This document shows, piece by piece, positions 13,420 through 14,577 of a stretch of 14,577 nt of DNA (positions are counted from its first letter, which is position 1; every line of letters begins with the position of its first letter). Position numbers and translations under genes: made by a program. Location of the stretch: UHGV virus genome UHGV-1333726; one strand, given 5' to 3'. Origin of the DNA: a virus. The notes beneath the pieces were generated by a model, which saw nothing but the letters and a program-made list of their open reading frames with translations, made no database searches and was not told where the DNA came from.

Positions 13420-13640
13420 TTGCCACCCTCCGCAATTAACTTATCAAGCCATTTGTTATTAGCCAGCCGTTCGGCATCTTCGCCGAATGATTTACGGTCG
13501 CTTAATTCCTGGCGAGTAGGCTTAGGCCATTTATCGTGCCACCCCGCAGACGTTTCGAACTCATACAGGCCGCCGTCAAAACAAATAAGCTCATCACGAC
13601 CGTCAGGAATTTCCTTATCTACTTCTTTTTCTTCAATCAT
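13416..13640 (-). CDS. hypothetical protein (74 aa)
   Basis: ATG 13640, 12 nt after upstream stop. Confidence 0.55.
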   Translation of the reverse strand: MIEEKEVDKEIPDGRDELICFDGGLYEFETSAGWHDKWPKPTRQELSDRKSFGEDAERLANNKWLDKLIAEGGK

Positions 13641-13652
13641 GATAACACCTCA

Positions 13653-13949
13653 TTAATCGTTAATGACCTGGCCCATACGCCCGCGATATTTGCGCATACG
13701 TGGATCGACATATTCAGGCCAATGCATATCCGGTTTTCTTTGCAGTGGGTAAAAACTTGCCTGCCAGTTGTCGAACCATATTTGTTTTGCGTACAGGTCA
13801 CTAAATCTTTTTGCCATCCGTTCCGCTGCCGTTCCGCATAAAAAAAGCCCATGATCGATATGATCACGGGCTTCTTTGAGAACTTGCTCTTTTGTTCGCG
13901 GTGGCGGTGGCGTTTTTAAATAATCAACCATCGCTAACCACCTCGTCAT
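13653..13949 (-). CDS. hypothetical protein, start uncertain
   Basis: ATG 13949 with GAGGGAG upstream (alternatives 13976, 13931); contains a PPPP stretch. Confidence 0.5.
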   Translation of the reverse strand: MTRWLAMVDYLKTPPPPRTKEQVLKEARDHIDHGLFLCGTAAERMAKRFSDLYAKQIWFDNWQASFYPLQRKPDMHWPEYVDPRMRKYRGRMGQVIND

Positions 13950-14445
13950 GCGCGTTGGCTCCCTCACCATGCTCATTGTGCCACGCTCGATGGCAAATAG
14001 GACAAAGCCACATAACGTCTAACGGCTTATCATAATCGCAATGGTGAGCGTGCACGCGTTCGCTTCTTCCGCATACTTCGCAAGGTTGTTTGACCAGCTT
14101 GCCGTCACGGATGGCATTTCCTACCATTATTTCAGCGTGCCTTTTCTTTGGGTTACTTCCCTGCCATTTATCCCTGCTTCTTTTCATCGCTTCCTTGCCT
14201 TTTTCAGTTTGCTGATACTTTCTTTTCATCTCCTTTCTTTCTTCCGACTGGTCTCTTATTTTGTCGTATTCCTTATAGTGCTCTTTGTTTTCTTTGTAAT
14301 TATTTTTGACATCTCGTTTTGTACACTCCTTGCATTTATTTAAATAGCCATCAGCCATTTTTTTATGTTTATAGAAACAAGAAAGGGGCAATAACGCCCC
14401 GCATTTAAAACATTGTTTATAGTGCGTAAATTCTGTGTTTTCCAT
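13924..14445 (-). CDS. HNH endonuclease with N-terminal zinc ribbon
   Basis: ATG 14445; C-terminal VHAHHCDYDKPLDVMWLCPICHRAWH is a canonical HNH motif; N-terminal CFKCG...CKEC; the ORF-track extension to 14574 is the alternative frame of the ssb tail. Confidence 0.8.
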   Translation of the reverse strand: MENTEFTHYKQCFKCGALLPLSCFYKHKKMADGYLNKCKECTKRDVKNNYKENKEHYKEYDKIRDQSEERKEMKRKYQQTEKGKEAMKRSRDKWQGSNPKKRHAEIMVGNAIRDGKLVKQPCEVCGRSERVHAHHCDYDKPLDVMWLCPICHRAWHNEHGEGANAHDEVVSDG

Positions 14446-14577
14446 ACTGCAACCCCACGTAACCGAATGGAATCGAATCATCAAAATCCATTGGCGGCTC
14501 TTTATATCCACCGCTATGACTCTGCTGTTGCTGTCCTGCATCATTGCTGCCACCTTTGCCGCCAGTAAACTCAAAGT
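14417..14577 (-). CDS. ssb: single-stranded DNA-binding protein, C-terminal fragment (5' end beyond window) with atypical extension
   Basis: Frame entering from the window edge reads ...GGKGGSNDAGQQQQSHSGGYKEPPMDFDDSIPF (Gly/Gln-rich linker plus acidic tip like E. coli SSB ...PPMDFDDDIPF) but continues GYVGLQYGKHRIYAL before TAA at 14417. Confidence 0.5.
   Translation of the reverse strand, partial: FEFTGGKGGSNDAGQQQQSHSGGYKEPPMDFDDSIPFGYVGLQYGKHRIYAL

Follow-up and report, generated by a model that had tools for sequence, protein, structure and literature searches.

The acidic tail of T7 gp2.5 is C-terminal and recruits partner proteins, and its deletion abolishes function. The bacterial SSB C-terminus (SSB-Ct; DDDIPF in E. 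coli SSB) also ends in a terminal Phe, and in the pockets that receive SSB-Ct a conserved basic residue binds the free carboxylate of this last Phe (PMC5872125). In phage HK620, the SSB motif NDYPPF is the true C-terminus, the tip recruits the cognate recombination protein Sak4, and deletion of the motif abolishes function (PMC5928155). The SSB described here is similar to the bacterial proteins in that the tip PPMDFDD[DS]IPF follows a Gln/Gly-rich linker in an OB-fold SSB, and similar to the HK620 system in that it is phage-encoded, belongs to a recombination module with an annealase as neighbour and bears an acidic motif ending in Phe. Yet the motif, which occupies the true C-terminus of both HK620 SSB and T7 gp2.5, is internal in this protein, where the Phe that is terminal in bacterial SSB-Ct is followed by 15 residues of a tail that is conserved and widespread in phage SSBs.

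The gene that follows ssb codes for an HNH-type protein, for which the closest described HNH homing endonucleases are I-KsaII (polA intron of Staphylococcus phage K-like phages), I-HmuI (SPO1) and MobE (T-even-like phages). The resemblance to these phage enzymes includes the small size and the combination of a zinc finger with HNH (33% identity to I-KsaII over the full length), the sporadic occurrence in close relatives, the precise location beside a highly conserved DNA-metabolism coding sequence, and the tight or overlapping junctions with the flanking genes. Unlike intron-encoded I-KsaII, the present gene is not in an intron; in contrast to curated HNH families, its product falls below the Pfam HNH threshold; and the site with which it is associated is a short peptide-coding motif (SSB-Ct tip or tail), present in at least 23 unrelated upstream clusters, and not a single gene family. 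The ssb-HNH gene order is also known from SPP1, in which gene 36.1 follows ssb gene 36 within ~25 nt, and from Achromobacter N4-like phages, in which two HNH genes follow ssb; these proteins are described as I-HmuI-like or NUMOD4/HNH_3 and are compared with the present family by description only. In these phages, the adjacency of ssb and HNH is mentioned only in passing.

The window analysed is a stretch of 14,577 nucleotides from a viral genome (UHGV-1333726), and all of the genes discussed are on its minus strand. The 3' part of ssb (14417-14577) comprises 52 codons and a TAA stop (14419-14417) and runs off the window end; translated from 14575, the partial frame reads FEFTGGKGGSNDAGQQQQSHSGGYKEPPMDFDDSIPFGYVGLQYGKHRIYAL up to the stop. 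Translation bears out the original prediction that a canonical SSB tip is not C-terminal: PPMDFDDSIPF (14465-14497) is followed by 15 further codons, encoding the tail GYVGLQYGKHRIYAL (14420-14464), before the stop. As encoded, the tip Phe thus has no free alpha-carboxylate, and with 15 residues behind it only loss of the tail would allow the carboxylate contact. The upstream gene is indeed an SSB, as tested for the OB fold on full-length homologues, the window itself holding the last 52 ssb codons. A full-length homologue of 149 aa (5580-6029 of L004, a contig with the identical HNH protein) passes PF00436 and TIGR00621, the latter with 85.8 bits (cutoff 53.95); for the copy in mEp554, the PF00436 match is at 7e-24.

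The HNH gene (13924-14445, stop included) codes for 173 aa, with an ATG at 14445, a TGA stop at 13926-13924 and the N-terminus MENTEFTHYKQCFKCG. Its ATG lies out of frame within the tail codons TAT GGA, which accounts for the predicted 29-nt overlap with ssb (14417-14445), and the conserved HNH core (K10-x-C12) starts at the ssb stop codon; the overlap geometry is equal in the loci L016, L167 and L108, with 52-55 nt from F to the first Cys. The right junction, GGTTAGCGATGG (13928-13939), is common to HNH-less phages, where it serves as abc2 leader and start, and in the window it also codes for the final HNH residues. The anti-RecBCD gene abc2 (13653-13931), assigned by phrog_656 (1.7e-32) and by gene calls in relatives, has its ATG at 13931, overlapping the HNH stop (ATGGTTGA). 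The locus probably belongs to a mEp021-like lambdoid phage and to the section of its early-left operon that deals with recombination and anti-RecBCD functions, in the order erf, ssb, HNH (where present) and abc2.

At the N-terminus of the HNH protein is a zinc-ribbon-like CxxC...CxxC module (C12, C15, C38 and C41; 14323-14412), the four columns of which are invariant in a 37-sequence alignment and which has strands (E9-38) in the AF2 model. The HNH core, C122-x2-C125 ... H134 H135 x D137 Y138 ... W146 x C148 x2 C151 H152 ... H156 (13978-14082), likewise holds candidate catalytic or ligand residues that are invariant among the 37 diverse homologues (C122, C125, H134, H135, D137, C148, H152 and H156), and the AF2 model places beta-beta-alpha elements at E132-135, E144-147 and H149-159, so that the modelled core has the beta-beta-alpha-metal fold; the canonical central Asn of the HNH core is not obvious. 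Among curated profiles, PF01844 aligned at the core but reached 10.3 bits (E=0.85), its cutoff being 21.4, the NCBIfam scan of the 173-aa protein gave no match, the PADLOC scan gave nothing above threshold, and searches of PDB chain sequences, by single sequence and by profile, returned noise only. The sole profile match is phrog_2340 ("endonuclease", 1.4e-48). The full-length alignment with I-KsaII (E 2e-18) joins the protein to an endonuclease annotated as intron-encoded in polA, itself putative by annotation, for which we know of no published cleavage data. By this homology to an intron-associated endonuclease, the product is a nuclease of the homing-endonuclease lineage, in agreement with the original prediction, and would combine a zinc finger with a beta-beta-alpha-metal nuclease capable of DNA cleavage. 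Literature searches found no reports of cleavage, homing or expression for any member of the HNH family. Neither Pfam nor NCBIfam has a model for the family, most members of which carry the annotation hypothetical; in the mEp021 record the gene has no annotation.

The tail of the window SSB is a diverged member of a family with the consensus AP[IV]GLxYPRHAI[HY]A[IL], which was revealed by a profile of 52-aa SSB C-termini that returned mainly short SSB fragments and not full-length proteins. Of the 80 IMG/VR loci obtained through this profile 79 are tailed, and HNH is absent from 78 of these and present in one. The tail is found in 100 phage records, among them epsilon34, g341c, HK75, mEp235, Vibrio phages and Klebsiella KB57-like phages, and homologous tails occur on at least four unrelated SSB cores; tip and tail without HNH are seen in HK75 and in loci from E. 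coli (L236) and Salmonella (L238 and L239). In the ssb frame the pN/pS of the tail is 0.41, versus 1.03 and 1.67 in the other two frames, the differences being mostly synonymous in the ssb frame with no such bias in the others; for the tip codons, across the tailed loci, it is 0.08. This pattern of substitution identifies the tail as a conserved and translated module of the SSB, on which purifying selection acts in the ssb frame. Literature searches for the tail peptide found no description of it.

The mEp021-like phages show all four combinations of tail and HNH: mEp044, mEp010 and MS 21-1 have neither, mEp021 has HNH without the tail, the window has both, and the contig L320 has the tail without HNH. 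The original prediction considered an insertion of HNH right at the ssb stop. This location is upheld, but the idea that the insertion removed the stop and led to accidental read-through is contradicted by the 78 HNH-less tailed loci, by HK75, epsilon34 and the mEp021-like L320, and by the purifying selection on the tail. These distributions indicate that HNH insertion did not create the tail, and that the ssb at whose stop codon HNH lies had its tail already.

The placement of the HNH family was surveyed in 167 evaluable loci, pooled from three collections. An acidic [ILVM]PF tip ends at most 135 nt upstream of the first HNH Cys in 152 of them, against a background of 15 such tips in 3262 windows (0.46%), and most of the exceptions have variant tips. 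The upstream tip-bearing proteins are unrelated in sequence and form 23 blast clusters, which include PF00436 SSB, phrog_9002, phrog_743, phrog_7364 and gp2.5-like phrog_112; through the tip, the family is associated with a conserved candidate target in genes of importance. The ORFs downstream of HNH are not conserved (95 clusters in 123 loci). The information content around the Phe codon reveals only the demands of the peptide motif, a preference for TTT, and TAA/TAG or AAT-TAG thereafter; third positions of the tip codons, except TTT, are not unusually conserved, so that the DNA gives no footprint of a recognition site independent of the peptide. Unrelated HNH-bearing phages have no right-hand homology in common, and the spread of HNH between SSB families thus needs illegitimate events. 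Literature searches for a tip-linked HNH family found no description.

The identical 173-aa HNH protein was read on 23 metagenome contigs (40 blocks in the index), and the combination of tail and overlap recurs at 78-95% DNA identity in mEp554, in E. coli prophages (N1286, RM9245 and GCA_034539595) and in an IMG/VR contig. As foreseen for a mobile gene, HNH occurs in some close relatives and is missing from others: only 2 prophages among 32 related ones in E. coli carry it, as do 3 of the 7 isolated phages. The junction was defined by comparison with HNH-less relatives, as originally suggested: relative to mEp044, 525 nt (tail and HNH) take the place of 10 nt between the Phe codon and the right junction, and in a ~150-kb phage lineage the HNH-bearing L016 differs from the HNH-less L245 by an insertion exactly between the tail TAA and the operon terminator. 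In these allele pairs from two phage lineages, HNH lies exactly at the ssb stop codon, and its presence is sporadic at this one precise site. In L320 the opening 9 codons of HNH survive as a fusion to abc2, and L245 still has the out-of-frame ATG and its ORF, so that both alleles may be products of HNH loss and not naive targets. Over the 63 nt that end with the Phe codon, the window shares 96.8% identity with mEp044, which lacks both HNH and tail; left of this codon the window is closest to an HNH-less phage, while its HNH is closest to other phages, and this mosaicism at the tip may be an indirect hint of co-conversion of the flanks. The direct repeats GGTTAcG and GGTTAgCG at the window junction are not shared by N1286 or mEp554 and were thus taken as chance.

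The explanation which we favour, and consider fairly probable, is that a free-standing homing-type HNH gene uses SSB 3' ends as its site and has borrowed a start codon inside a pre-existing tail. Two separable elements would thereby meet in this locus. The SSB represents a widespread phage class with a conserved, translated stretch of ~15 residues behind the tip; the tip would be internal by design and not by accident. The HNH lineage appears to specialise in the 3' ends of genes encoding an SSB-type tip, as suggested by its position directly after the stop of such genes, whatever the SSB family, and by its apparent gain and loss between near-identical phages. The enzyme would recognise and cut HNH-less alleles in or near the conserved tip/tail DNA, and recombinational repair would then copy the gene into the cut allele, the conserved tip codons providing the homology on the left. 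In the sub-lineage of the window, the HNH core abuts the tail stop and translation would start at the out-of-frame ATG in the tail, whence the overlap, such that HNH expression would probably depend on ribosomes translating ssb. This translational coupling is a conjecture: the SD-like GGGG is weak, and the RNA around the HNH start, folded to see whether structure might sequester it, does no better than shuffled sequences (z -0.74).

As a counterpoint to homing, the constant adjacency to tip genes could also reflect a functional partnership with SSB. HNH would then assist phage recombination/replication as an accessory enzyme of that module, working with or recruited by tip-bearing SSBs, and always encoded beside them because they are working partners. 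Adjacency to tip-bearing genes in ~91-97% of cases across very different phages is consistent with this proposal, as are the location of HNH in recombination modules (erf-ssb-abc2), the recruitment of cognate recombination proteins by phage SSB tips (e.g. HK620 Sak4; PMC5928155), and the HNH genes beside ssb in SPP1 and N4-like phages. It is nevertheless unlikely, in view of the sporadic occurrence of HNH among near-identical phages whose module is otherwise complete, its spacing, tied to the stop codon and not to the operon, the lack of a conserved gene downstream, the homology to an intron-encoded endonuclease, and the tail that masks the tip in the window's own SSB. We give still less credence to the tail being a scar of the HNH cassette, whose own 5' leader would be read as an SSB extension, with HNH-less tailed SSBs as remnants. 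Tail and HNH form one 525-nt block relative to mEp044, L320 and L245 keep parts of such a cassette, and SSBs in other HNH sub-lineages have extensions of 1-17 residues, in some cases together with a coupling overlap (ATGA or GTGA); however, almost all tailed IMG/VR loci are without HNH, an out-of-frame ATG is missing from the tails found most often (APVTLPFPRHAIHAI and relatives), and the selection on the tail in the ssb frame holds across deep divergence, with many cultured phages tailed.

The remaining alternatives concern the reading frame itself. A fusion of SSB and HNH by programmed frameshifting, within a 216-aa ORF from TTG 14574, appears highly improbable and was rejected because the upstream open frame is not conserved: the HNH frame has no stop between 14574 and 14445, and PHANOTATE called the longer ORF in mEp554, yet L108 and L167 have an HNH-frame stop 2-4 codons before the ATG. 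Moreover, PGAP and metagenome gene callers start HNH at the ATG, a slippery site was not noted, and other members of the family have their own RBS and spacer. The earlier suggestion that an error of sequencing or assembly, or else a recent frameshift, hides a stop right after IPF draws on nothing beyond the rarity of internal SSB tips and is scarcely credible, since an equal frame and tail are shared by the 23 contigs that bear the identical HNH, by the cultured phage mEp554 and by complete E. coli genomes, the frame is kept by many independent assemblies and diverged relatives, and the tail differences are largely synonymous in the ssb frame only.

The accepted rule that an SSB tip has to be a free C-terminus is systematically broken by the conserved tail in many phage SSBs. 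HK75, epsilon34 and mEp554 are cultured phages with a tailed SSB, i.e. natural variants, and tailed SSBs provide a means to study which contacts phage SSBs make or evade, be it with SSB-interacting proteins of the host, cognate annealases (Erf, Sak4) or SSB-sensing defence systems. It is proposed, tentatively and as a joint claim, that the HNH homing site is SSB tip DNA (together with the tail in one sub-lineage) and, separately, that the tail caps SSB-Ct. The tail would then be a so far undescribed cap, blocking or redirecting the carboxylate-dependent docking of host proteins on the phage SSB. An HNH family that tracks a coding motif of six to eleven residues, and not a gene family, would follow an unusual homing strategy; one selfish lineage of this large, uncurated family could invade the 3' ends of unrelated SSB genes in widely differing phages because tip DNA would be a near-universal homing site. 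This would also account for the "HNH after ssb" gene order, which recurs among phages and has lacked an explanation. Co-conversion may, in the same event, move tip/tail modules between unrelated phage SSB genes. The tip-linked HNH family also offers a simple annotation rule.

A scan of 13500-14577 for promoters found none. A terminator-like hairpin, GGGGCGTTATTGCCCC, with a T-rich run (14375-14400) lies inside HNH codons 15-24; one such hairpin was found versus 1.4 expected in shuffles, which is chance level, and a terminator is annotated at the matching place in mEp554, so that the hairpin could conceivably act as an attenuator.

On the minus strand, which carries all genes in this part of the window, the ssb frame read from 14575 translates as FEFTGGKGGSNDAGQQQQSHSGGYKEPPMDFDDSIPF-GYVGLQYGKHRIYAL-stop, in which the codons of the acidic tip (14497-14465) are followed by fifteen further codons (14464-14420) before a TAA stop (14419-14417), as originally predicted. 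A second ORF, coding for a 173-aa protein with the N-terminus MENTEFTHYKQCFKCG, extends from an ATG at 14445 to a TGA at 13926-13924, and reading both ORFs returns the same 29-nt overlap that had been claimed. The upstream gene is indeed an SSB, as its full-length copy passes PF00436 and TIGR00621. The next gene, abc2 (anti-RecBCD; phrog_656, 1.7e-32), has its ATG at 13931, in an 8-nt overlap with the HNH stop.

The region matches lambdoid coliphages of the mEp021 group, together with E. coli prophages related to them. The exact 173-aa protein was read in 23 contigs (40 blocks in the index listing), and its carriers include gut-metagenome phage contigs of ~55 kb whose genes run cI - erf - ssb (149 aa) - HNH - abc2, one of them ~94% identical to the window. 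The suspicion of a sequencing error as the source of the ssb extension was rejected, because relatives at 78-95% DNA identity all retain an extension of 15 codons, in the same frame and with the overlap of 29 nt (phage mEp554, the E. coli N1286, RM9245 and GCA_034539595 prophages, and one IMG/VR contig). A frameshift fusion of SSB and HNH was likewise rejected.

The Pfam HNH model scores 10.3 bits on the 173-aa protein, below the 21.4-bit cutoff, and NCBIfam, PADLOC and PDB sequence searches gave no match; the only curated-library match is phrog_2340 'endonuclease' (1.4e-48). By tblastn, the HNH matches 551 phage-genome records. An alignment of 37 diverse homologues shows an invariant N-terminal CxxC...CxxC module and an equally invariant C-terminal C-x2-C...H-H-x-D-Y...W-x-C-x2-[C/H]-H...H, and the AlphaFold model built from it (pLDDT 90.9) has a beta-beta-alpha unit at its end. 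One of its distant relatives is I-KsaII, which in Staphylococcus phage K-like viruses carries the annotation of an enzyme encoded by a polA intron; compared pairwise, the two proteins are 33% identical along their full length (E 2e-18). On account of the invariant motifs, the modeled fold and this homology, the protein is treated here as a predicted HNH-type nuclease of homing-endonuclease lineage.

In phages mEp044 and mEp010 and the MS 21-1 prophage, which lack the HNH, ssb finishes at ...IPF-stop, followed after ~10 nt by GGTTAGCGATGG, the abc2 leader and start of the HNH-less mEp021-group phages. Relative to these alleles, 525 nt in the window (tail plus HNH, 14464-13940) replace 10 nt, and over the 63 nt to the left of the Phe codon the window shares 96.8% identity with mEp044. 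Comparison with the ssb of HNH-less relatives had been proposed as a means of defining the insertion junction; the right junction comes out exact. The 3' end of the window HNH is not its own: GGTTAGCGATGGTTGA (13924-13939, minus strand) supplies the last five codons and the stop, and this sequence serves HNH-less phages as abc2 leader and start. Phage mEp021 carries a homologous 174-aa HNH (L006 2180-2704; MH706966.1 13839-14363), while its ssb stops on its own after IPF and is separated from the HNH by a 29-nt spacer with an RBS; its GenBank record leaves 538 nt unannotated from ssb to the anti-RecBCD gene, and the intact ORF lies there. All four combinations of tail and HNH thus occur in the mEp021 group, since the mEp021-like contig L320 supplies the tail without the HNH. 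Among 32 related E. coli prophages, the HNH is covered in only two.

The original prediction took insertion of the HNH as a possible origin of the extension, yet tails are common without it. A profile of the SSB C-terminus retrieved many enterobacterial SSB fragments ending in ...EPPMDFDDDIPF plus a tail (APVTLPFPRHAIHAI, APIGLPYPRHAIYVI and APVGLQYANHAIYVL, among others), and the HNH is absent from the three tailed loci looked up, in one of which, an E. coli prophage, abc2 lies 14 nt past the tail stop. The cultured phage HK75 also has the tail and no HNH, as do 78 of 79 tailed loci in an IMG/VR scan. The tail was matched by tblastn in 100 phage records, including epsilon34, g341c, HK75, mEp235, mEpX2, ECP1, Vibrio phages, Klebsiella KB57-like phages, Acinetobacter ABPH49 and Serratia Kashira, and it is borne by at least four unrelated SSB cores; that of the window, GYVGLQYGKHRIYAL, is a diverged member of the family. 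Over 39 distinct tails, the ssb frame has a pN/pS of 0.41, as against 1.03 and 1.67 for the other frames (0.08 for the tip codons); the tail is therefore translated and, as a peptide, under selection. Four sequence-unrelated cores (loci L108, L016, L167 and L060) share one PPMDFDDDIPF+AP.GLQY.. module, a sign that modules may be exchanged where the tip is encoded. At a further locus (L238 2695-3231), a host-like SSB with the tail APIGLPYPRHAIYVI has an in-frame TAA at ~82 codons and is called as two genes; it is likely to be a pseudogene or to reflect an error in the sequencing of this assembly.

In tailed loci with the HNH, its conserved core (K-x-C-F-K-C) begins exactly at the tail stop codon, and its start is an out-of-frame ATG within the tail (TAT GGN in the window, L016, L108 and L167; CAT GCA in L060). 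In a ~150-kb phage lineage, the HNH-less L245 reads tail-TAA-terminator and L016 reads tail-TAA-[HNH core]-TAA-terminator. The HNH is thus placed at the ssb stop codon, whether ssb ends in tip or tail. In the window, the HNH start lies 19 nt past the Phe codon, with a weak GGGG as the only SD-like element and with the ssb stop 26 nt downstream of the ATG, from which we infer that translation of the two genes may be coupled. RNA folding near this start was not significant. A terminator-like hairpin (GGGGCGTTATTGCCCC then TTTCTTGTTT; 14375-14400, minus strand) lies within HNH codons 15-24, just past the ssb stop, at a place matching a Rho-independent terminator annotated in the mEp554 record; the hairpin count (1 vs 1.4 expected from shuffles) shows no excess.

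In an unrelated ~151-kb phage contig, a 62%-identical HNH likewise overlaps by 29 nt the gene of a 310-aa protein without a Pfam SSB domain, whose C-terminus is EEPPMDFDDDIPF-APIGLQYGRNFLHCF. Family loci were drawn with patterns built on the HNH alone from three collections: IMG/VR, the GTDB genomes and the JGI metagenomes. Of 167 evaluable loci, 152 (91%) have an acidic [ILVM]PF tip whose Phe codon precedes the first cysteine of the HNH by at most 135 nt, compared to a background of 15/3262 equivalent windows (0.46%); the 15 exceptions are mostly variant tips (APF*, TPF*, IGF*, IPW*, EPF*). The tip-bearing proteins form 23 blast clusters with the last 15 residues trimmed (OB-fold SSB, phrog_9002, phrog_743, phrog_7364/18154, gp2.5-like phrog_112 and several families of unknown function), and the crudely called downstream ORFs form 95 clusters over 123 loci. 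The constant neighbour of the HNH family is therefore the tip-coding 3' end, and neither a gene family nor an operon. In other sub-lineages, the SSB ends at Phe (75 loci), one residue later (66, mostly Asn) or 4-48 residues later (11), and some show ATGA or GTGA overlaps, as is usual for translationally coupled genes.

The best-supported reading, and one we consider rather probable, is that of a free-standing homing-type HNH whose site would be the conserved end of ssb that encodes tip and tail, and which, in the window, would have lodged behind an already existing tail; cleavage, target and homing are here inferred. A functional SSB-associated nuclease, the main rival, would likewise account for the adjacency to tips, but it is unlikely, leaving unexplained the sporadic distribution, the stop-codon-exact junctions and the intron-endonuclease ancestry. 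The tail might instead be a scar of the HNH cassette, in keeping with the first nine HNH codons kept in L320, fused to abc2, and the out-of-frame ATG kept in L245; as tails are broad, under selection and independent of the HNH, this is the more doubtful of the two rivals and quite improbable. In the mEp021-like contigs L320 (1832-2122; ERZ28627275 scaffold_3491) and L321 (1253-1444), both with the tail and without the HNH, abc2 begins at the out-of-frame ATG within the SSB tail, and its first nine residues, MAKAGSTRY, match the HNH N-terminus, with a Tyr-Leu join to normal abc2. Such a fusion could be what remains after the HNH core was lost in frame, or else an uninvaded target.

In the pockets that bind the SSB C-terminus, a conserved basic residue contacts the free carboxylate of the terminal Phe (PMC5872125), and phage SSB tips are required for recruitment of the cognate annealase, e.g. 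HK620 Sak4 (PMC5928155). With 15 residues after Phe, this carboxylate contact cannot form in a tailed SSB unless the tail is removed. The tail might mask the tip, provide a second motif or serve another role; tip-like L-P-F / L-Q-Y occur inside it. HNH genes after ssb are mentioned in passing for SPP1 (genes 36/36.1; PMC6316719) and Achromobacter N4-like phages (PMC3915230). Neither a tip-linked HNH family nor the SSB tail turned up as such in a literature search of incomplete coverage, and an earlier description may exist.

Small Cys-rich proteins of 65-67 aa (..C..C.H..) ending in ..W-[IE]-x-x-[IL]-P-F lie directly upstream of the HNH in some loci (L067 1396-1590, L080, L091, L224). They do not resemble SSB, and their only matches are PHROGs of unknown function; the ..[IL]PF-stop codons may be all that the HNH needs, or else these proteins are unrecognised tip-bearers. 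In about 30 of 80 IMG/VR loci (L018-L097; e.g. L019, L065, L074, L075, L090, L093), the SSB ends in ...IPF plus one residue, mostly Asn, and the junction is conserved as CCTTTTAATTAGAAyGGGyCTATAATGG, with TATAAT inside and a hairpin after it whose 3' arm carries AGGAG just 5' of the HNH ATG. The arrangement resembles a promoter carried by the cassette together with a structure that sequesters the RBS. A second, more distant paralogue of this HNH family, not behind a tip, is inserted between erf and ssb in the E. coli RM9245 prophage (L008 1485-2093) and in mEp013 (PP180002.1 10931-11488; ~31% identity), so that at least two sites in the recombination module are occupied by an HNH.
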